20,293 nt of DNA from an uncultured virus (IMG/VR IMGVR_UViG_3300044911_003846) (Duplodnaviria > Heunggongvirae > Uroviricota > Caudoviricetes). The notes beneath the pieces are model-generated. The model saw only the letters and a list, made by a program, of their open reading frames with translations. It was not told the origin of the DNA and did no database searches. Every line of letters starts with the position of its first letter. Within the stretch, counting starts at the first letter, position 1. Both the position numbers and the translations under genes were made by a program. Of the stretch, positions 4,118 through 18,162 are shown piece after piece. The DNA lies in the IMG/VR virus record IMGVR_UViG_3300044911_003846. One strand, given 5' to 3'.

Positions 4118-6373
4118 TTATCCTAATGCAATTGCAATTGCAGTGGCAAAATCTTGTGTAGCAACAGTGCCAGTTTCATCCGGCAATGTCACGGTTTGAT
4201 TAGCGGTTAGTGTTGCAGGGGTAATTGAAGCGGAAAATGAACCTGAACCCCCCGCTCGTCCAGTGATAACAATTCCATCCTGTGTTGCGGCCCGGCGAAA
4301 AACTTGTCCCGTTGCATTTGTAAATGTATTTGCCCCGGTAAAGGCATTGTTAGCACCTAAATAAGCAACAGTGCCACCAGCTCCGAATGCAACCGACGAT
4401 GCATCCGTACCTGAAAAAGTTAAAGTATTAGATACAGTAAGAGTTTTACCATCTGCAATGGTTAAAGTGGCACTAGTAGCTGGTGCTGTAATTGCAACTT
4501 TATTAATTGATGTCGCGCTAGCAACACCCAAAGATGGAGTCGTAAGTGATGGTGACGTTGCAAAAACAAGCAAGCCAGTACCGGTTTCATTGGTTACAGC
4601 GGCTGCTAAGTTAGCGCTAGTTGGCGTTGCAAGAAATGTTGCAATACCTGTAGCAAGGCCAGAAATGCCGGTAGAGATAGGCAATCCAGTGCAGTTTGTT
4701 AATGTTCCAGACGCCGGTGTTCCTAAAGCAGGGGTGATAAATGTAGGTGAATTATTAAAAACAAGCAAGCCGGTACCGGTTTCATCGGTTACAGCGGCTG
4801 CTAAGTTAGCGCTAGTTGGCGTTGCAAGAAATGTTGCAATACCTGTAGCAAGACCAGAAATACCGGTAGAGACAGGCAATCCAGTGCAGTTTGTTAATGT
4901 TCCAGACGCCGGTGTTCCTAAAGTAGGGGTGATAAATGTAGGTGAATTATTAAAAACAAGCAAGCCAGTACCGGTTTCATTGGTTACAGCGGCTGCCAAG
5001 TTGGCGCTAGTTGGCGTTGCAAGAAATGTTGCAATACCTGTAGCAAGACCAGAAATACCGGTAGAGACAGGCAATCCAGTGCAGTTTGTTAATGTTCCAG
5101 ACGCCGGTGTTCCTAAAGTAGGGGTGATAAATGTAGGTGAATTATTAAAAACAAGCAAGCCGGTACCGGTTTCATCGCTAATAACCCCAGCCAATTCCGC
5201 TGAAGTTGTCGCCGCAAAAAACGATAATTTATTACCACTTAAGGCAATTGTTCCGTCTAAATCCTGTACGGTTAGTGTTCGTGTGGTTGCAGCTGTAATA
5301 CTTGAGGCACTAAAAGCAATTTGCTTTGTAATATCAGTCGTATTACGAATCCGGAATCCGCTGTCATTAGTGGTAATTCCAGTGGAAGTTACCGATGTCA
5401 AACCAGTGAGTGTCGTCGAGCTGCTGCCAAGTGCAATAGCAGTGCTTCCAACAGTAATTGAGCTATTTGCTAATTGAGAGTTGGGGATTGCGCTGGTACC
5501 GAACTGACCCGTGGTGCTGTTGTAAGTTAATCCCGAACCAACTGCGACACTAAGTGCGCCGCGAATATTGGCGTCGGTAACAACAGCAAAAGCATAATTA
5601 CCGGTGGTACTGTTATACGTTAAAGATCCGTAACCCGTACCAGTTGTAGAGGCACTTAATGCGCCTCTGATGTTGGCATCTGTAACAACAGCGTAACTAA
5701 AAGCTCCGGTAGCACTGTTGTAAGAAAGCGAACCATAGCCAGTGCCAGTATTTGCAGCACTGAGGGAAGTCAGAAGAGCAACGGTACCAGCGGCATCAGG
5801 AAACGTAATAGTGCGATCAGCTGTTGGGTTGGTAACAGTAAGAGTTGTTTCAAAAGCATCAACTCCAGAGCCTTCAAAAACAATGCCAGTGCTATCCAGC
5901 TGGATGGTGTTTGCGGCTCCAGCAGCACCTCCAGCAATCAGTGTTGTAGAACTGAGACTCGTAAGGCCTGCAACGGTGGTTGCTGTGCCTCCAAGAGAAA
6001 CAGAAGTGGATCCAATCGTAACTGAACTATTGGCCAGCTGGGAGTTGGGGATGGCACTGGTGCCAAAAACCCCGGTGCTGCTGTTATATGTAAGTCCCGA
6101 ACCAGCAGCGACACTGAGTGCCCCACGAATATTGGCGTCGGTAACAACAGAAAACGTAATAACGCCCGTAGCGGAACTATAAGAAAGTGCTCCATATCCT
6201 GTACCGCTTGTGCTTACGGAGATGGCACCACGAGCGCGAGCATCCGTGTAATAAAGACGGGTTCCTTCCGCTAAATCAGTTGTAGAGTTACCAGCAAAAT
6301 CAAGCTTATCGGTAGGAGTATTGACCTCCTCAAATAAACCGCTAACAAGACAAAGTGCTTTTCTAGTTGCCAT
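4118..6373 (-). CDS. Long repetitive tail fibre (751 aa)
   Basis: Thr/Ser/Gly/Ala-rich. Contains TTDLAEGTRLYYTDARAR, FEGSGVDAFETTLTVTNPTADRTITFPDAAGTV and DETGTGLLVF repeats. Ends in FATAIAIALG. Confidence 0.85.
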   Translation of the reverse strand: MATRKALCLVSGLFEEVNTPTDKLDFAGNSTTDLAEGTRLYYTDARARGAISVSTSGTGYGALSYSSATGVITFSVVTDANIRGALSVAAGSGLTYNSSTGVFGTSAIPNSQLANSSVTIGSTSVSLGGTATTVAGLTSLSSTTLIAGGAAGAANTIQLDSTGIVFEGSGVDAFETTLTVTNPTADRTITFPDAAGTVALLTSLSAANTGTGYGSLSYNSATGAFSYAVVTDANIRGALSASTTGTGYGSLTYNSTTGNYAFAVVTDANIRGALSVAVGSGLTYNSTTGQFGTSAIPNSQLANSSITVGSTAIALGSSSTTLTGLTSVTSTGITTNDSGFRIRNTTDITKQIAFSASSITAATTRTLTVQDLDGTIALSGNKLSFFAATTSAELAGVISDETGTGLLVFNNSPTFITPTLGTPASGTLTNCTGLPVSTGISGLATGIATFLATPTSANLAAAVTNETGTGLLVFNNSPTFITPTLGTPASGTLTNCTGLPVSTGISGLATGIATFLATPTSANLAAAVTDETGTGLLVFNNSPTFITPALGTPASGTLTNCTGLPISTGISGLATGIATFLATPTSANLAAAVTNETGTGLLVFATSPSLTTPSLGVASATSINKVAITAPATSATLTIADGKTLTVSNTLTFSGTDASSVAFGAGGTVAYLGANNAFTGANTFTNATGQVFRRAATQDGIVITGRAGGSGSFSASITPATLTANQTVTLPDETGTVATQDFATAIAIALG
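4562..5176. repeat. Tandem 195-bp (65-aa) near-identical coding repeat, about 3.1 copies
   Basis: caagcaagcc(a/g)gtaccggtttcat recurs at 4567, 4762, 4957 and 5152 (exact 195-nt period) with only a few substitutions between units. Confidence 0.95.
5440..6210 (-). repeat. Diverged coding repeats in the fibre N-terminal half
   Basis: GTGYGxLxYxSxTG...VVTDANIRGALS occurs three times (about 6120-6205, 5655-5750, 5550-5640). GSGLTYNSxTGxFGTSAIPNSQLANSS occurs twice. Confidence 0.85.
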
Positions 6374-8188: not shown

Positions 8189-10489
8189 CTATGAATTGAT
8201 ATACAAACCGCCGTCAACAACAGTATCCTGGGCGGTTAAAGGCGAATATGTTTCACAGTCTATCAGACTGGTCTGCGAAGCAGGTTCGACGGGAACACCA
8301 TTCAGATAAGTACCACCAATAATCAAGCCAAATTCAAAATCCGGTACATAATTAACCAGTGGCTCATCCAACATTCCAAGCTTTGTATCCTGAATCAAAG
8401 TTGGTTGGATATTAAATAGTTTGCTCATCATCGTGAGCATCCGGTTTGCTGTATTAACTTCAGTACCACTACGATCTAATTCACCGTTAACGCCACGACG
8501 AATGCTGTCGGTCATCATCATGGTGACCAATTCTGTGTTGTAATTTGCAACCTGTTCTGGTTGGTTTCTCGATCCAGTAATTGAAATGCCTCCAACCCAG
8601 GGCATACCCTGCTGCATCATTGCAAGTCGTTCGGCTGCCTGCCTTAGCCTCTCATTCTCTTTTTCAAAATTACGATAAAAAACATCGAGCCCATTGCCAA
8701 TTGGTTTATCACTCGGCTCTAAAATCCAAGAGCTGACAAAATCATGCTCCCTTAAATTACTGACCGTTACATAGCCGCCGGTAACTTCGCTAAAAGGATA
8801 AACAACAACAAACGTATTTTTGTCCGGTACGCTTGTAATCGTATAGCGACCCGACAAAGCATTTCCACTAGTGAAATCTAGCTGAATTTTAGTGTTTGCA
8901 ACCAACCCGTGATCTGGTGCGGTGATTGTAATATTTGGACCCGACTGTGTATATGTAGCGGCAAGGGCAATTGGTTCATTTCCTTCATCATGAACAACGG
9001 AAAACATTGCCGCATAAATGTGTTTACACCAGCGGATTTGATAATAATAGAGATTTGGATATGAATACTCACTGGTGTCCTGATAATCCGGAAGCCCATA
9101 AAAGTTATTGATTACAGAGTAACCAAGATCAGCGAAGCTACCGGGAATATCTCTCTCATTACTTAAAGTATTGTCGTCATTTTGAGTCTGTCCAGGCTTT
9201 GTGGATGAGATAGCGGTAACCGGAAACCTTTGGCTGGTTTTATCTTTGTATAAGTTAAAGCCCTCGCGGCGCATAAAATCTTGGCAGGAACACTGCCACC
9301 GTAGTTCCGTGGTCAAAAAGCGGCCAACAATGAATCCGCGTTGAGCCGGAACTGTTGTTACGTATTTATTGTCAACAAGAATACTTCCGTAGCTATCTTC
9401 TTTTTGGAAAATAATCTCATTGGTTGTAACATCAACGCCAGTAACGGTATATCCTACATAATCGTCATACCGGAATCCAGGGATTAACCGGCTAAGAATT
9501 AAATTGCCGCTTGTAACACCGCTGTCAATAGTAGTAATTCTTAACTGCGTAGAACTAGTGACGGTCACATCATATTGACCAGACGAGACTAACCCACTCG
9601 TTACTGCAATAAATATTCGATTTCCAGTGGATAAACCGTGGGGGGATGTGCAATTAATTGTTACGAGAGAGCCGGTCCTGGTGTACGTAGAGAAGATTCC
9701 TGGATCTTTCTCGACCACACGGTCAATTAATCGCTCACCAGCAAAAAATCGTACTGGTACAGGAATAGAGCGCAGTCGAACACGAGTCGTTGTCCAACGT
9801 GGATCAGAAAAAGACGTGGTTAAGTAGTAAATTAAAGCGCCACTAGCTGTGAGAGAGCTGCCGGCGGTTACTGTAAAAGTATTCTGAGTTGTAGAGACAA
9901 CGGTTAGGGTTGCATCAATACCAGCACCGGTAAGGACATCTAAATAAACACTCTCGCCAATCAACAAATTGTGATCCGGAGACGAAATCGTTAACGTAGT
10001 CCCAGATTGAGAATATGTTGCAGTAACTGGATCCGCCAAATAGCGAACAGCCAGAATGGGTAAGCCGAAATTATAAAAATTAAACGCATTTGCATCACGC
10101 ATCCCAACAACCTGCTCATTGATCTCTTTGTCTGTTGTTGGGAACGTGAAAACACGGCCAGGGATAAACACGCCGGGGAACTGCTGGAAAGCGCAGTACA
10201 TGCGGAAATCACCCCGTCTACGCCGTTCATTAGCGAATGACCCCAGGACACTCTGAGTGATGGTATACAGCTCGTATCCGCGACGCCAACGAGTCCACAA
10301 AGAATCGTAATCGTAGAAACGAACTCGACTCTTTAAATCTTTATTTTGTGGTAAAAAATTAAATTTTTGTGTTTCCTTCGCGTAATCCTCTACAGCTCGA
10401 AACTGATTTGGATCTTCAAAATTACCAAACGTTTTGCCACTAAAAGTTTTTTTCGACGGAGGATCGAATCCGCCAACGTCGAATGGCAT
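8189..10489 (-). CDS. Large protein (766 aa) with three beta-barrel repeats and a SWIM-type zinc finger
   Basis: Three (A/S)TY.....TI....H.L..G..(V/I)....T.G repeats, plus WQCSCQDF...WCKHIYAAM (CxC...CxH). Confidence 0.8.
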   Translation of the reverse strand: MPFDVGGFDPPSKKTFSGKTFGNFEDPNQFRAVEDYAKETQKFNFLPQNKDLKSRVRFYDYDSLWTRWRRGYELYTITQSVLGSFANERRRRGDFRMYCAFQQFPGVFIPGRVFTFPTTDKEINEQVVGMRDANAFNFYNFGLPILAVRYLADPVTATYSQSGTTLTISSPDHNLLIGESVYLDVLTGAGIDATLTVVSTTQNTFTVTAGSSLTASGALIYYLTTSFSDPRWTTTRVRLRSIPVPVRFFAGERLIDRVVEKDPGIFSTYTRTGSLVTINCTSPHGLSTGNRIFIAVTSGLVSSGQYDVTVTSSTQLRITTIDSGVTSGNLILSRLIPGFRYDDYVGYTVTGVDVTTNEIIFQKEDSYGSILVDNKYVTTVPAQRGFIVGRFLTTELRWQCSCQDFMRREGFNLYKDKTSQRFPVTAISSTKPGQTQNDDNTLSNERDIPGSFADLGYSVINNFYGLPDYQDTSEYSYPNLYYYQIRWCKHIYAAMFSVVHDEGNEPIALAATYTQSGPNITITAPDHGLVANTKIQLDFTSGNALSGRYTITSVPDKNTFVVVYPFSEVTGGYVTVSNLREHDFVSSWILEPSDKPIGNGLDVFYRNFEKENERLRQAAERLAMMQQGMPWVGGISITGSRNQPEQVANYNTELVTMMMTDSIRRGVNGELDRSGTEVNTANRMLTMMSKLFNIQPTLIQDTKLGMLDEPLVNYVPDFEFGLIIGGTYLNGVPVEPASQTSLIDCETYSPLTAQDTVVDGGLYINS

Positions 10490-13490: not shown

Positions 13491-13771
13491 CAGAACTGAT
13501 TTTGAATCGGCCTTTTATTAAGAATAACAGGCGGAATGCTGTCACTGTAACTGCGACTAACCTCTCTCATGTAAGCAGGATTATTCATTTGGTAACGTGG
13601 ATCGTCGGTGCCGTTATATGCAACGACGTAACCGCATTTGCTTTCAGATTCCCGACGAACCTCATTAAATGGATCGCTAAACCCAGCGGTTTGCAGGCTG
13701 TAATCCTGATACATATTTTGATAGGTTACCGGAAATCCCTGAGAATAACCGGGAACAGCAGCGAATCTCAT
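13490..13771 (-). CDS. Hypothetical protein (93 aa)
   Basis: Stop/start coupled to both neighbours. Confidence 0.7.
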   Translation of the reverse strand: MRFAAVPGYSQGFPVTYQNMYQDYSLQTAGFSDPFNEVRRESESKCGYVVAYNGTDDPRYQMNNPAYMREVSRSYSDSIPPVILNKRPIQNQF

Positions 13772-14406
13772 TACGTTAAGTAGTTAGGCGTTTGTGAGAA
13801 CGCTTGGGTGAGCATCCCGACCGGGTCAATCATTGAGCGAACCTCTGGTTCTACTCCAAGAGATTGCTGAAGGTAAGAACTTAAGAAACTTTCCGGAGTG
13901 GTTGCCTTTTTACGGCCACCAACAATGATATAAGTATCGGCCGGAGCGATCTGAGGTTGAACCATTGGAGAAGCCTCAGTCTGCTTACCACCCTTGGTAT
14001 GAAGAAGACGAATCTCGTATGGAGTGCCCTGTGGGTCGGTGGTTTTAATCGTTCCATATCCCTTTCCCGGAGTAAATGTACCCGGTCCTTCCCAGGCTAG
14101 TGGGGTGCCTCCAGCGATCCCATAATCCTGCCCCATGTGTTGGGTGGAAGCCCCCTTGGTTGGTGCAACACGCTGTCCAAAAGGAGAAGTAATGGTGTAG
14201 CTTGGGCTCCACTCCTCTCCTTTCTGCTGCCAAAGAGGCTTCCGTTCTTTTCCGACTTTTAATCTCGTTAACAGAGAACGGATCGTACCGGGATCAACAT
14301 ACTTCCCATCTTTTAAAACACGGACATCAAGATGAGGCCCGGTCGTAGGAAATACATCTTGTCCGGCCGGTGTCACATATCCGACATCAGTTAACGAGTT
14401 TGCCAT
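13771..14406 (-). CDS. M23-family peptidase-like protein, circularly permuted
   Basis: TTGPHLDVRVLKDGKYVDP precedes ITSPFGQR...HMGQD...GTP...GYG...LLH, the reverse of the canonical M23 motif order. Confidence 0.8.
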   Translation of the reverse strand: MANSLTDVGYVTPAGQDVFPTTGPHLDVRVLKDGKYVDPGTIRSLLTRLKVGKERKPLWQQKGEEWSPSYTITSPFGQRVAPTKGASTQHMGQDYGIAGGTPLAWEGPGTFTPGKGYGTIKTTDPQGTPYEIRLLHTKGGKQTEASPMVQPQIAPADTYIIVGGRKKATTPESFLSSYLQQSLGVEPEVRSMIDPVGMLTQAFSQTPNYLT

Positions 14407-14408
14407 TA

Positions 14409-15059
14409 TCAGGACCCCAGATAATTAGGTGTCTGCGAAAAAGCAGCAGTTAGCATCGCTGCAGGGTCAAGACTCGATTGCACTTTCGGGGCTTTACCAC
14501 CAGCGATGTTGCGCATGATGAAATCGTCTAAATAGCTGCTTGGTTCGACCTGTGGTTCAGTATCACCAAAAATGATAAAAGTCCTACCACGAGCAGCGGT
14601 CTCTTGCGATGGACTTGGCTGACGACCCTGAAGAGCCTCCGTAAAACTAAACTGATCAGGACCAATAATTTTTTGAACATACCGGTTGGTTTCGGCGTAC
14701 TTCTTACTGGCCTCAACGGCTCCGGGTCCAGCATTGTAAGCGCGTAGACCTTTTTCATAAGCAGCCCTGAGTTGCATTGGGTCACTAACCTGACCTGGTT
14801 GTTTACCACCAAGGTAGGTTTTGATGTAACCCGCCATATTCTTGGCAGCAGCATCTAATGCGGCAACGGGATCATCCGGATTAACACCCCAACCCTTGGC
14901 GGTTGCAGGCATAATCTGAGCAATTCCACGGGCGCCAGCAGAAGAAATAGCCTTCGGATTAAAGCCAGATTCGGCTTGAATTTGGCGCTCAAATACTTGA
15001 GGTAAAAGCCCATATTTTTGGGCTTTTTGACGGGCAATCTCGCGATAGTCGGTAGGCAT
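14409..15059 (-). CDS. Soluble lytic transglycosylase (SLT domain, about 216 aa)
   Basis: QAESGFNPKAISSAGARGIAQIMPATA and AYNAGPG motifs. Likely start is ATG 15059 (MPTDY), not 15218, which overlaps the upstream gene. Confidence 0.92.
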   Translation of the reverse strand: MPTDYREIARQKAQKYGLLPQVFERQIQAESGFNPKAISSAGARGIAQIMPATAKGWGVNPDDPVAALDAAAKNMAGYIKTYLGGKQPGQVSDPMQLRAAYEKGLRAYNAGPGAVEASKKYAETNRYVQKIIGPDQFSFTEALQGRQPSPSQETAARGRTFIIFGDTEPQVEPSSYLDDFIMRNIAGGKAPKVQSSLDPAAMLTAAFSQTPNYLGS

Positions 15060-15081
15060 ACGTATGGCTGAGTACGTGGCG

Positions 15082-15561
15082 TTAGCGGAAATCGGTTGAA
15101 AGCATAAGCCGAGTACCGACAGCAACGTCGGCAGGGCCAGGGAGCGCTTGAATGAATTCAGCGCCTTCTCGGTTGAACCGATACCGAGCTTGCTCGGGAT
15201 TTCGGTAATTGGGGACATACAGATGTAGGGCTAATCGATCCGTCTCGTATAAATAAATCGCCGTCCAAGTTTTCAGCGTGTCTCTGAAATCAGAGGTCGC
15301 AATCGTACGATCAACGTCACCGGCTATGCTCTCAATACGACTACGTGGGACGGTATTATTATTCACGCTGCCAGTCATGTCAGTGCGCTTTTCAGCCTCG
15401 TCGCACCGACCGATCTGTTCGACAATTTTCGAATACCAGAACGAATCTTGGATGTTGTTGACAGCTTCCTCTAGACGCGCTTGGTCACCAGCCGGGACAG
15501 ACGTCAGGTTATAACCCAGGTGCCAGCGGACTTTGGACTTAAGGAAGGTATCGAGTTGCAT
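15082..15561 (-). CDS. Putative head-tail adaptor / head completion protein (159 aa)
   Basis: Helical protein beginning KSKVRWHLGY, located downstream of the capsid genes. Function inferred from position. Confidence 0.55.
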   Translation of the reverse strand: MQLDTFLKSKVRWHLGYNLTSVPAGDQARLEEAVNNIQDSFWYSKIVEQIGRCDEAEKRTDMTGSVNNNTVPRSRIESIAGDVDRTIATSDFRDTLKTWTAIYLYETDRLALHLYVPNYRNPEQARYRFNREGAEFIQALPGPADVAVGTRLMLSTDFR

Positions 15562-15632
15562 TACTGAAACGAAATGCGTTACAGGTACACCATCTCAGAT
15601 GTACCCAGTAACACACTAGCACGCGCAAATAA

Positions 15633-16073
15633 TTACTCGACGCGAACTAAATTCTCTTTAAAAATTTCATCCCAATCAACACGTTTGATGCCCTTCAATT
15701 GCTCCAATCTTTGGAAACGTTCGCCAGGCATCGACATTTGAAGGTCTTTGATATCTCGCGCTGTTTTGAGACCAACACCAGGGAGCGCATCCGCAATCTG
15801 TCGGGCACTAGCGGTGTTGATATTCATCCGCGTATCTAACGGGAAGGTTTCCTTTTTCGTCGGAATCGCCGGGTTCACGCCCTCTGACGCAAGTTGTGCG
15901 GTCAAGCGCTCTTCGGTCTTGATCTGCTCAGTGGTCGCATCCAGGTGCGGAACCAGATCAGATTCATCGATGTAAAGAACTTCATCTTGGGAATCGATGC
16001 ACATGACGATCCCATCGCCATGCTTCGCAATCATTTCCACCAAACCGCCGGTTACACGGTATTGATACAGCAT
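15633..16073 (-). CDS. Helix-hairpin-helix (ComEA/HHH_3-like) DNA-binding protein (146 aa)
   Basis: MNINTASARQIADALPGVGLKTARDI...F..LEQLKGIK is the ComEA-type HhH signature. Confidence 0.85.
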   Translation of the reverse strand: MLYQYRVTGGLVEMIAKHGDGIVMCIDSQDEVLYIDESDLVPHLDATTEQIKTEERLTAQLASEGVNPAIPTKKETFPLDTRMNINTASARQIADALPGVGLKTARDIKDLQMSMPGERFQRLEQLKGIKRVDWDEIFKENLVRVE

Positions 16074-16131
16074 CGTTGTAATTTTAGTCTCTGCTTAGCC
16101 TAACAAACTAAATCCAAACCAACAACAGATA

Positions 16132-16160
16132 ATAAAAAAGGGGCTCCGAAGAGCCCCTTC
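16132..16160 (-). terminator. Rho-independent terminator after the capsid operon
   Basis: Minus strand AAGGGGCTC-TTCG-GAGCCCCTT-TTTTATT: perfect stem, UUCG tetraloop and U-tract. Confidence 0.92.
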
Positions 16161-16179
16161 ATTTGCATCGATTGACAGA

Positions 16180-16998
16180 TCAGCTGTCGGTACCGCCCAC
16201 TTGGGAGGCGAAATCGATGAAGCCTTGGATATCGTTCCAAGCCACAGCGGCTTCAGGACGCAGGTAGTTGATGCGGCACAGCAGGTAAGCAGCCTTACCA
16301 GCGGCCTGGTCATCTGCGCTGATGAACACACCGTCGCCGTTCACGGAAGTATCGGTGATGGCGTTGATGTTGTAGACCTTGAACAGCTGGTCCGAGGTCA
16401 CCCGGTACATCATCGAGTTGGCAGCGTTAGCAGCCGTGATGCCGCCGGTGGTGACGGTGGTCCAGAAAGGCAGGTCGCCGTTGGTGGTGTCGCCAGTACC
16501 CTGAGCAATGCCGGAAGCACCGATGGTCAGGCTGGAGCTAGCAGCGGCCAGACCATTGCCCTGCGAGGAGGGAACGCCGAAGGGGCTACCCGAGTTATCG
16601 GGACCCAGCAGCAGCACCTCGGTGTTGGTGCCGCCCAGGTCGGCAGTCACAGGAGAGGCGGGGAAACCGGCCAGGCCACCAGCGGGGATGTCCTGGGCCA
16701 GCGCCAGAGATGCGCCGTAAATGTATGCGGGGCGATCAGAGCTGGCTTGCACCGTCAGAGTGGTGCGGTTATCACGCACCCGATCATCGGGACGACGGTC
16801 GGGGGAGGGGATGGTGATGTTGAAGCTCTTGTAGTTGGCTTTGTCTGCAGCAAGGTTATCAATCTTGATGTAGCCAATCAGCTCGAAAGCTTCAATGCCA
16901 GGCCAGCCAAACACACCTTCGGTGTTATAGGAGGACAGGCGGTTGATCTGATTACCGGGTTGCAGAATTGCACCGGCTTCTTCTTTGTAAGCAGCCAT
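16180..16998 (-). CDS. Abundant structural protein co-transcribed with the capsid gene (decoration/minor capsid candidate, 272 aa)
   Basis: Strong SD GGGAGGT, same C-ending codon bias as the capsid gene, located between the capsid gene and the terminator. Confidence 0.7.
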   Translation of the reverse strand: MAAYKEEAGAILQPGNQINRLSSYNTEGVFGWPGIEAFELIGYIKIDNLAADKANYKSFNITIPSPDRRPDDRVRDNRTTLTVQASSDRPAYIYGASLALAQDIPAGGLAGFPASPVTADLGGTNTEVLLLGPDNSGSPFGVPSSQGNGLAAASSSLTIGASGIAQGTGDTTNGDLPFWTTVTTGGITAANAANSMMYRVTSDQLFKVYNINAITDTSVNGDGVFISADDQAAGKAAYLLCRINYLRPEAAVAWNDIQGFIDFASQVGGTDS

Positions 16999-17016
16999 TG
17001 TTAAGTACCTCCCTTA

Positions 17017-18162
17017 TCACTCAGTAATGGTAAAGGCACAGGTCACGAAGTCCTTGTTCAGGTTCGCGAAACCGGCGTACAGCTGCCAAATCAGGATGAT
17101 GAAGCGGCTGAAGTCATCGTTGTTGTTGATCAGAACTTGAGCGTTCGGACCACCGATGCCCACACCCACAGCCTGAGGACCGAAGAACAGGGCAGGAGGA
17201 GTGTCGTGAGAAACAGAGCCGTCGCCGTCGTTGATGTCAACGGTGATGGACTTGCTGGGGAAGTTGGTGGATTCGAAGAACCGCACACCTTCAAACACAA
17301 AGCCGGAAGGCATCACGGGTTCGCCAGCCACGAACTGAGCTTGGCCAAACTGACCACCACCATAGATGGCGGCGTTAGGAGCCATGGCGCCCATCAGCGG
17401 GTTGGGAACGCCAGCGCCAGGATAGCGAGCCACTTCACGGAAGCCCTGGTCAGCACGCAGGTCCTTCATGAAGGAAGGATCAGCAATACAACGGTAGTAG
17501 CCGTCGGCGAACACAGGCACGTTGCGCTTGCGGAGGCTCTTCACAACGTTCAGAAGGTCGGTCTTAACGTTGAACTTGAAGCGCTCAGAAGCGTACTCGG
17601 TGGCGGTATAGGTAGCCAGAGTGGTCGAACCAGTCTTGGCGTGGTTGTTCGGATAGTAGTAACCACCCTGGGTGTCGGAGGACTGACCACGGGATTCGGC
17701 CTTGAACAGTTCGTCCAGGAACACGCGGTCGCGCCAGCGGCGGTAGTCATCCAGCAGGGTCAGCGAACCGATGGACTGGTGGAACATGTTGAGGTTCCCG
17801 GTGTCCAGCAGCAGACGCTGAGCGGTCATCAGAGTCTCGCGAGCAATCTTGAAGGTGCTCGGGAGGTTGGCATTGTTCGGGTCAGCAGGACCGGTGTACT
17901 CACGGAGAGACACCAGCACCTTGTCCTTCACGATGGACCGGCTGTTAGCAGTACCGATGGTTTGATCCTGGGTACGCTCACGGTTGGTCTTCGTGCCGGG
18001 GTTACCCCAGAAGCGGTAACGATCCAGCTGAACGGTCTGACCAGGCTGTTTGGTGAAGTCGTGGACGACCACAGGCTCGCAAGCCATTTCCACGATATAA
18101 GCCGGATGGGGGCGGTACAGCTCCGCACCCAACAGCTTGGGAAAGTCGTTATCAATAAACAT
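17017..18162 (-). CDS. Major capsid protein (HK97 fold, 381 aa)
   Basis: Size and position after the scaffold; DFTKQPGQTVQLDRY E-loop-like motif and G.FEGVRFFESTN...FFGPQAVG...DDFSR...W C-terminal pattern; strong codon bias. Confidence 0.88.
   Translation of the reverse strand: MFIDNDFPKLLGAELYRPHPAYIVEMACEPVVVHDFTKQPGQTVQLDRYRFWGNPGTKTNRERTQDQTIGTANSRSIVKDKVLVSLREYTGPADPNNANLPSTFKIARETLMTAQRLLLDTGNLNMFHQSIGSLTLLDDYRRWRDRVFLDELFKAESRGQSSDTQGGYYYPNNHAKTGSTTLATYTATEYASERFKFNVKTDLLNVVKSLRKRNVPVFADGYYRCIADPSFMKDLRADQGFREVARYPGAGVPNPLMGAMAPNAAIYGGGQFGQAQFVAGEPVMPSGFVFEGVRFFESTNFPSKSITVDINDGDGSVSHDTPPALFFGPQAVGVGIGGPNAQVLINNNDDFSRFIILIWQLYAGFANLNKDFVTCAFTITE

Follow-up and report, generated by a model that had tools for sequence, protein, structure and literature searches.

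The window analysed here, a stretch of 20,293 nucleotides from an uncultured virus (IMG/VR record IMGVR_UViG_3300044911_003846), is part of the morphogenesis module of an S-EIV1-like cyanophage. The product of ORF 17017-18162 matches the PHROG family of major head proteins (E-value 6e-17) and is 69% identical to the capsid protein of Synechococcus phage S-EIV1, which was its sole match among 50,697 phage records. Due to this match, the host is probably a freshwater picocyanobacterium. ORF 14406-13771 on the minus strand encodes P0001, a protein of 211 amino acids, and directly upstream lies a gene for a protein with a lytic transglycosylase (SLT) domain. In nearly all related loci, this pair belongs to the block of capsid and morphogenesis genes. 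The features of the locus are compiled in Table 1.

Several other genes of the window deserve mention. ORF 15633-16073 (minus strand) encodes a conserved protein of 146 residues with a weak helix-hairpin-helix (ComEA-like) match, which the capsid block contains in almost every locus, S-EIV1 included. ORF 4118-6373 (minus strand, 751 residues) is tail-fibre-like and has internal repeats of about 60 residues; ORF 8189-10489 (minus strand, 766 residues) combines endosialidase beta-barrel-like repeats, CxC...CKH motifs and a faint SWIM zinc-finger match, and is conserved in S-EIV1-like loci. In the S-EIV1 record itself (L081, 9397-10623), the annotation of the capsid region consists of a hypothetical ORF on the reverse strand and a C-terminal fragment. 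A single S-EIV1 ORF of 358 residues matches the capsid protein of the window over 99%, and the annotation is probably wrong.

Table 1. Features of the P0001 locus, given in window coordinates
Feature	Position	Strand	Basis
ORF of the permuted M23 protein P0001	13771..14406	-	ORF listing; 318 homologues at E<=0.001 among 434 candidates
Segment A, residues 5-43, corresponding to the canonical M23 C-terminal part; H25, D27	14278..14394	-	Matches to 3slu 311-339 and to MepM around H393/H395; shuffles 0/1000
GPHLD motif (HxD), residues 23-27	14326..14340	-	H25 in 65/66, D or H at 27 in 66/66 permuted clusters
Linker, residues 44-67, connecting the old C- and N-termini	14206..14277	-	DSSP H39-46, E49-51, E59-62, E65-68; pLDDT 97-98
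Segment B, residues 68-138, corresponding to the canonical M23 N-terminal part; H90, D94, H136	13993..14205	-	Sequence matches and structural alignment to LytM 2b0p
HMGQD motif (HxxxD), residues 90-94	14125..14139	-	H90 and D94 in 66/66 permuted clusters
H136, second catalytic His, near the new domain C-terminus	13999..14001	-	63/66 permuted clusters; gaps in the alignment in the remaining 3
C-terminal tail, residues ~156-211, two predicted helices	13774..13941	-	Tail homology with the upstream muramidase; pLDDT 45-72 (low)
Gene of the upstream lytic transglycosylase (SLT), separated from the M23 start by 2 nt	14409..15218	-	Pfam SLT, E-value 5.5e-19
Tail of the SLT protein, residues 213-267, common to the M23 protein	14418..14582	-	Sequence and profile comparison
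Conserved upstream block: major capsid 17017-18162, ORF 16180-16998, HhH-like ORF 15633-16073, ORF 15082-15561	15082..18162	-	Order retained in most related loci

P0001 has HxxxD, the upstream catalytic histidine and GPH in common with canonical M23B peptidases (PF01551; LytM 2b0p, lysostaphin 4lxc, MepM, ShyA 2gu1/6u2a, NMB0315 3slu, Pgp3 6jmx), and it also contains their TSxFGxR, GTP, GYG and VDP landmarks. However, the two halves of the domain are reversed. The stretch TTGPHLDVRVLKDGKYVDP (residues 21-39) with the GPHLD motif (14340-14326) precedes the HMGQD motif (14139-14125) and the LLH that finishes at H136, at the positions at which the initial annotation had placed them. The connection between the old termini is a new linker (residues ~40-67) of roughly 25-30 amino acids, close to the 30 or so that had been proposed; according to the AlphaFold2 model and DSSP, residues 44-67 would comprise a helix end, a strand and a beta-hairpin.

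That this order reflects a circular permutation of an M23 domain, as suggested at the outset, is borne out by out-of-order matches to solved M23 structures. A phmmer search of the PDB gave four weak M23 matches, and all three alignments shown consist of two pieces in reversed order; in the case of NMB0315 (3slu), residues 70-118 of P0001 align with residues 225-277 and residues 20-43 with residues 319-342, at an E-value of 0.017, which is weak when taken alone. With a profile of 13 family sequences, 18 of the 19 PDB matches at E<=1 were M23 proteins or proteins carrying an M23 domain (best E-value 6.7e-7), and all five alignments shown were again composed of two out-of-order pieces. A canonical profile was then built from the 63 canonical-order M23 domains among the query's own search matches, a choice that biases it towards the query. 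It matched the native domain in two pieces, with 24.4 bits for residues 21-43 (profile positions 100-122) and 54.1 bits for residues 68-137 (profile positions 3-74), and the re-ordered domain in a single piece of 80-82 bits (81.6). The score jump upon re-ordering that the initial annotation had predicted was thus seen in the score of the best single domain, which rose from 54 to 82 bits, but not for the whole sequence (80.1 to 82.3 bits), since HMMER already adds up the pieces. Residues 1-45 on their own reached 28.1 bits with the canonical profile, and none of 1000 shuffled sequences scored as high (maximum 9.0 bits). Beyond residue 137 the canonical profile found no match (best score -2.5 bits); therefore, no second HxH half is located downstream.

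Because of the bias of the canonical profile, a reverse test was made with MepM of E. coli K-12, which was chosen independently of its likeness to the query. A profile of 66 permuted clusters recognised native MepM in two out-of-order pieces of 39.0 and 16.4 bits, and re-ordered MepM in one piece of 52-54 bits (53.5). The C-terminal part of MepM alone scored 19.8 bits, which was not attained in 1000 shuffles (maximum 10.0 bits). Re-ordering tests based on single sequences are weak: for MepM, the total rose from 18.2 to 20.6 bits, a gain of about 2 bits; for S-PM2 p210 there was no gain (32.0 to 30.2 bits), and two other E. coli LytM proteins, presumably NlpD and ActS/YgeR, gave no signal in either order.

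The claim that the whole domain is permuted holds for the order of the halves, but a clean rotation was not found. About 12-15 canonical residues (MepM ~365-376), which form the hairpin after the first catalytic histidine (MepM H362), lack a counterpart, and the permutation was therefore accompanied by a loss at the new termini. Judging from the alignments and the model, the new termini are located where this hairpin is absent. Altogether, the domain is almost certainly a true M23 homologue with its halves in exchanged order.

Profile libraries recognise the family poorly, as had been anticipated. Neither P0001 nor four pieces of it gave an M23 match in Pfam, where the gathering score of PF01551 (28.7 bits) was not reached, and NCBIfam yielded no M23 match for P0001; a single dbPDZ_assoc match in the Pfam search was dismissed as spurious. 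Among 35 relatives scanned, five permuted ones passed the PF01551 threshold (P0169, P0174, P0189, P0191, P0231), and some of the less diverged relatives matched only part of the profile (positions 2-55 for P0174, 69-93 for P0189). Since P0001 has HxxxD after rather than before the second motif, HxD (H25-L-D27) instead of a literal HxH, and a score below the Pfam threshold, it was filed as a permuted M23B variant and not as a plain member. By sequence, it is nevertheless homologous to M23B peptidases, and by analogy it would work like them.

The alternative that no true permutation exists, the N-terminal GPHLD being a chance look-alike or the result of an assembly chimera of two gene fragments, could draw on the low single-sequence scores of segment A against solved M23 proteins (only 0.1-4.6 bits) and on the poor fold predicted from the single sequence (pLDDT 42). 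It is refuted by conservation across independent genomes and retains hardly any probability. A motif search detected the permuted order in 119 of 120 listed close homologues; it also occurs in 66 clusters and in the cultured phages S-EIV1, S-TIM5, R3177 and Mcat23, and the shuffle controls were negative throughout (0/1000).

These clusters were obtained from a search that gave 278 matches among representatives at 50% identity, the best 150 of which were examined. After 18 fragments or unclassifiable sequences had been dropped and three collinear calls had been removed as canonical (P0243 with tandem domains, P0246, P0248), 66 permuted and 63 canonical clusters were kept. The permuted subfamily postulated by the initial annotation is thus supported, and it has members in cultured phages. 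The domain is N-terminal, as in P0001, in 40 of the 66 permuted clusters, C-terminal in a larger protein in 25, and internal in one; among the fused and internal forms, 15 of the 19 scanned (of 26) have a muramidase or endolysin match. In the fused examples examined, the chain stops 1-6 residues past the equivalent of H136. In P0255, the permuted domain occupies the C-terminus, and the N-terminal part matches an S-CBP4 gene located between tail tube and internal virion genes. Of the longer homologues in the set of 5.8 billion sequences, four were found, and both of the two examined are lysozyme fusions. Searches of GTDB genomes with the close family and P0231, which reach close relatives only, found no relative. 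The nearest record (G001), which is a fragment, contains no permuted M23 gene.

Larger virion proteins carry the domain as well. Tape measure or tail proteins with a permuted M23 occur in 26 Acinetobacter and three Moraxella phage records, two of which were examined in detail: in Acinetobacter phage YMC11/11/R3177 (L082, 5001-5330) and Moraxella phage Mcat23 (L083, 5001-5330), the domain is unannotated and all five active-site positions are complete. A structure search added S-TIM5 AEZ65701 (L159, 6129-9122), whose GenBank annotation reads 'virion structural protein and packaging'; its permuted M23 domain has HxH and is preceded by a stretch resembling a degenerate M23 hairpin, possibly a relic of duplication. 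In these three proteins of 1000-1460 residues the domain is internal, the order is that of P0001, the motif is HxD in the first two, and the records lack an M23 annotation. In a tree of 136 re-ordered domains computed with a quick method, the label 'permuted' needs three changes. The tandem canonical domains of P0243 are collinear with the permuted profile across their junction, and an origin of the permutation via domain duplication is plausible.

Predictions of structure were made with and without an alignment. AlphaFold2 with 71 sequences modelled residues 1-140 as one block (pLDDT 86-98, pTM 0.70) and the tail poorly (pLDDT 45-72); residues 1-140 folded without alignment gave a poor and uninformative result (pLDDT 41.7). 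A Foldseek search of the PDB with the model of P0001 returned nothing at E<=0.001. In a wide structural search (VIA), 19 of the top 23 chains had an M23/LytM fold, if the LECT2 and SpoIIQ chains are counted, as we assume they should be, at Z-scores of only 3.1-4.2, which lie in the range of chance. The M23 chains aligned over 74-85 residues with Z-scores of 3-4.2, on segment B only, and a lectin tied for first place. Most of them align from about residue 41 of the model onwards with the N-terminal part of the M23 domain; one example, LytM 2b0p 188-273 (Z 4.2, rmsd 2.9, 76 residues), ends before H291 and H293. A restriction to the N-terminal part is what a sequential aligner is expected to give for a permutant, at Z-values that are themselves in the chance range. 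A second structural alignment added nothing further and again had LecB lectins tied with M23 chains; these lectins (Z about 4, 6-10% identity, no common motif) were dismissed as sharing a common beta arrangement. In a shallow coevolution analysis (226 sequences, effectively 77), seven of the top 15 pairs, such as L31-R133, T22-P82 and V8-I120, span both segments; since an estimated 37% or so of all pairs do likewise, the analysis was not taken to support the permutation.

In LytM, the zinc ligands are H210, D214 and H293, and H260 and H291 activate the water molecule (PMC4594094, PMC9662197). The equivalent residues of P0001 are H90, D94 and D27 on the one hand and H136 and H25 on the other; with MepM, D27 aligns with H395, the second histidine of HxH, and H136 with H362. 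An aspartate thus replaces the histidine that is the third zinc ligand, as had been proposed from the sequence. By the chemistry of LytM, H90, D94 and D27 would bind the zinc ion, and H25 and H136 would activate water, so that a metal ligand would be retained in spite of the exchange at position 27. H136 corresponds to the extra catalytic histidine of the LytM H260 type, normally found about 30 residues before HxH, though it follows HxD in this chain.

The five active-site positions are kept over the 66 permuted clusters (Table 1), and synonymous codons vary at these positions in 72 of the 74 distinct genes that were counted. Position 27 is aspartate in 50 and histidine in 16 of the 66, with nothing else observed. 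In canonical-order M23 sequences, 45 of 63 have histidine at this position, 17 aspartate and one glutamate. As aspartate is frequent in both groups, HxD is a recurrent variant that is independent of the permutation. On a rough tree, the D/H label changes nine times in permuted and ten times in canonical rows, a pattern that fits an exchangeable metal ligand, Asp or His. Among the literature matches listed and the PDB matches, no characterised or solved M23 protein with HxD was found.

These observations bear on the idea that P0001 has an M23 fold with little or no catalytic activity and serves as a peptidoglycan binder or as a partner activator like EnvC or NlpD, the H-to-D exchange and the lost hairpin marking a loss of function. 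The literal HxH motif, which defines M23 catalysis according to PMC9662197, is indeed missing, the middle of the domain is shortened, and no equivalent of Tyr204, the oxyanion tyrosine of LytM (PMC4594094), was assigned. However, inactive LytM factors such as EnvC and NlpD have lost zinc ligands or catalytic histidines, and the two E. coli LytM sequences compared lack such residues; P0001 and its relatives retain both water-activating histidines and all three ligand positions, and position 27, with its nine changes in permuted and ten in canonical rows, takes only D or H in the permuted clusters, as expected of two exchangeable ligands. We regard a loss of function as improbable, and P0001 is quite likely an active peptidase. 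The walls of cyanobacteria contain mDAP. P0001 would probably cut D-Ala-mDAP cross-links, as judged from its nearest solved relatives NMB0315, ShyA and Pgp3, whose specificities are given in a table of PMC9662197.

The gene upstream offers a hint at the biological context. The SLT protein's best PHROG match is the family 'internal virion protein with endolysin domain' (E-value 5.4e-25), and its last 55 residues are similar to those of P0001 (45% identity, E-value 3e-16; hhalign probability 99.6). A gene of at least 180 codons adjoins the M23 ORF in 82 of the 83 loci that contain the whole M23 ORF, which yields 59 distinct pairs. The catalytic domain in this slot shows an SLT motif in 16 pairs, another motif, which we take to be lambda-lysozyme-like, in seven, and is lysozyme-like by inspection in the other 36. 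The slot (14409-15218 in the window; loci L001-L154) thus exchanges muramidase types, and position and tail stay constant.

The tails moreover vary in a concerted manner. Over the 59 pairs, the tail similarity was 81.7 within a genome versus 54.3 across genomes (shuffles 22.6). For 23 dereplicated pairs with less than 50% tail identity, the values were 84.6 and 47.5, and none of 20,000 permutations was as high; the tail of the own partner ranked first in eight of the 23 cases and within the top three in 15. This co-variation can partly result from common ancestry. A tail profile, which was built from such tails, found 87 M23 and 89 muramidase-slot ORFs in 95 loci and no other gene. In the linkers of the fused forms the shared tail was not detected (best E-value 0.036). 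In S-EIV1, the tail of AHV82231 differs from that of P0001 and resembles, though more weakly than in the window pair, that of the phage's own lysozyme-like AHV82234 (score 56; one of 2000 shuffles was as high).

The start of the SLT gene requires a comment. As annotated, the ORF shares the stretch 15082-15218 (minus strand) with the final 45 codons of ORF 15082-15561, which are read in a different frame, and this overlap provides a 53-residue N-terminal extension with a hydrophobic stretch. No stop interrupts the extension frame in 65 of 66 relatives; in a separate count, it was open in 46 of 47 versus 16 expected. Openness depends on only three stop-capable sites, stops are likewise avoided at other sites of this kind, and synonymous divergence shows no reduction. 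For these reasons a signal-peptide-like extension was judged doubtful. The extension is probably an overlap artefact and the true start probably M54 at 15059; a dual start is still conceivable.

Two sites of action can be considered for the pair. The same permuted, active peptidase could be a lysis enzyme that acts from inside together with the muramidase at the end of infection, with the tail as a wall- or membrane-binding or export element. Most of the weak PHROG matches of P0001 (E-values 0.001-0.007) are with endolysin-labelled families, cyanophage PaV-LD has an M23 endopeptidase that acts with a holin (PMC9096620), and the possible hydrophobic extension of the muramidase would suit this role. 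On the other hand, the extension is open to the objections given above, the pair is placed among capsid and morphogenesis genes in almost all loci, none of the 15 window proteins scanned matched a holin family of Pfam or PHROG, S-EIV1 has a separate gene annotated as lysozyme about 9 kb downstream, and relatives are found in tape measures and virion proteins. A role in lysis therefore seems unlikely to us. Like virion lysins, P0001 and its relatives are encoded in a morphogenesis module or fused to virion proteins, and from this context a function in the virion is probable.

A precedent is the ejection protein gp28 of cyanopodophage A4 (9k2v), which unites a lytic transglycosylase and an M23 domain in a cyanophage virion protein and for which peptidoglycan hydrolysis at infection has been proposed (PMC12002296). 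It is a single protein of 1058 residues with an M23 domain in canonical order, whereas in the window the two domains are encoded by separate small genes whose products have a tail in common, and the M23 is permuted. By analogy, both enzymes would probably travel inside the particle and be set free at entry, where the muramidase would cleave the glycan strands and P0001 the cross-links; the shared tail may direct the two to one location in the particle. On balance, we favour the interpretation that P0001 is a circularly permuted M23 peptidoglycan endopeptidase which depends on Zn, is probably active and is most likely packaged into the virion together with the muramidase for entry.

A more specific version is tentative and appears doubtful at present: in S-EIV1-like phages, the tail might act as a dedicated address label by which exchangeable wall hydrolases enter the virion as cargo for ejection. 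It was considered because the slot swaps catalytic families while keeping the tail, the tails drift in step, and no other gene carries the tail. As part of the same speculation, a permutation that ends the domain just after the catalytic histidine might have made the peptidase portable, for attachment to the tail tag, to tape measures or to internal virion proteins.

The closest named relative is S-EIV1 AHV82231, annotated as 'peptidase M23 family', an orthologue with 50% identity over 97% of the domain, which is permuted, has HxD and is encoded near the capsid gene. It differs in its tail and in that the muramidase gene is downstream and not directly upstream; a permutation is not noted in the record. 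Natural permutation that exchanges the order of catalytic residues is known from another wall peptidase family, the circularly permuted NlpC/P60 proteins (YaeF/G6R, LRAT-like; PMC6403190), which as cysteine peptidases are unrelated to M23 in fold and chemistry. The term 'circularly permuted' refers to these NlpC/P60 proteins in PMC6403190 and to RdRPs in bioRxiv 10.1101/2022.02.15.480533. M23 peptidases are a much-studied family of wall hydrolases; their review PMC9662197 describes one fold, and 'permut' occurs 0 times in its main text. No mention of M23 was found in PMC10087341. No paper on a permuted M23 was found among the literature matches listed, in a search of openly accessible papers. 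A further novelty is the 55-residue C-terminal tail common to the M23 protein and the upstream muramidase and co-varying across genomes.

A widespread and conserved natural permutant shows that new termini next to the active site are compatible with the M23 fold. Permuted M23 proteins mark a group of phage lysins which escape Pfam, NCBIfam and Foldseek or are matched only by half, and this group includes an unannotated peptidase domain in the tape measures of Acinetobacter and Moraxella phages. The natural pairs of HxD and HxH enzymes allow one to ask whether a His-Asp-Asp zinc site works in M23. Finally, the shared tail provides a lead, open to testing, to the way in which entry enzymes may be packaged in a little-understood lineage of freshwater cyanophages, of which S-EIV1 is available in culture.
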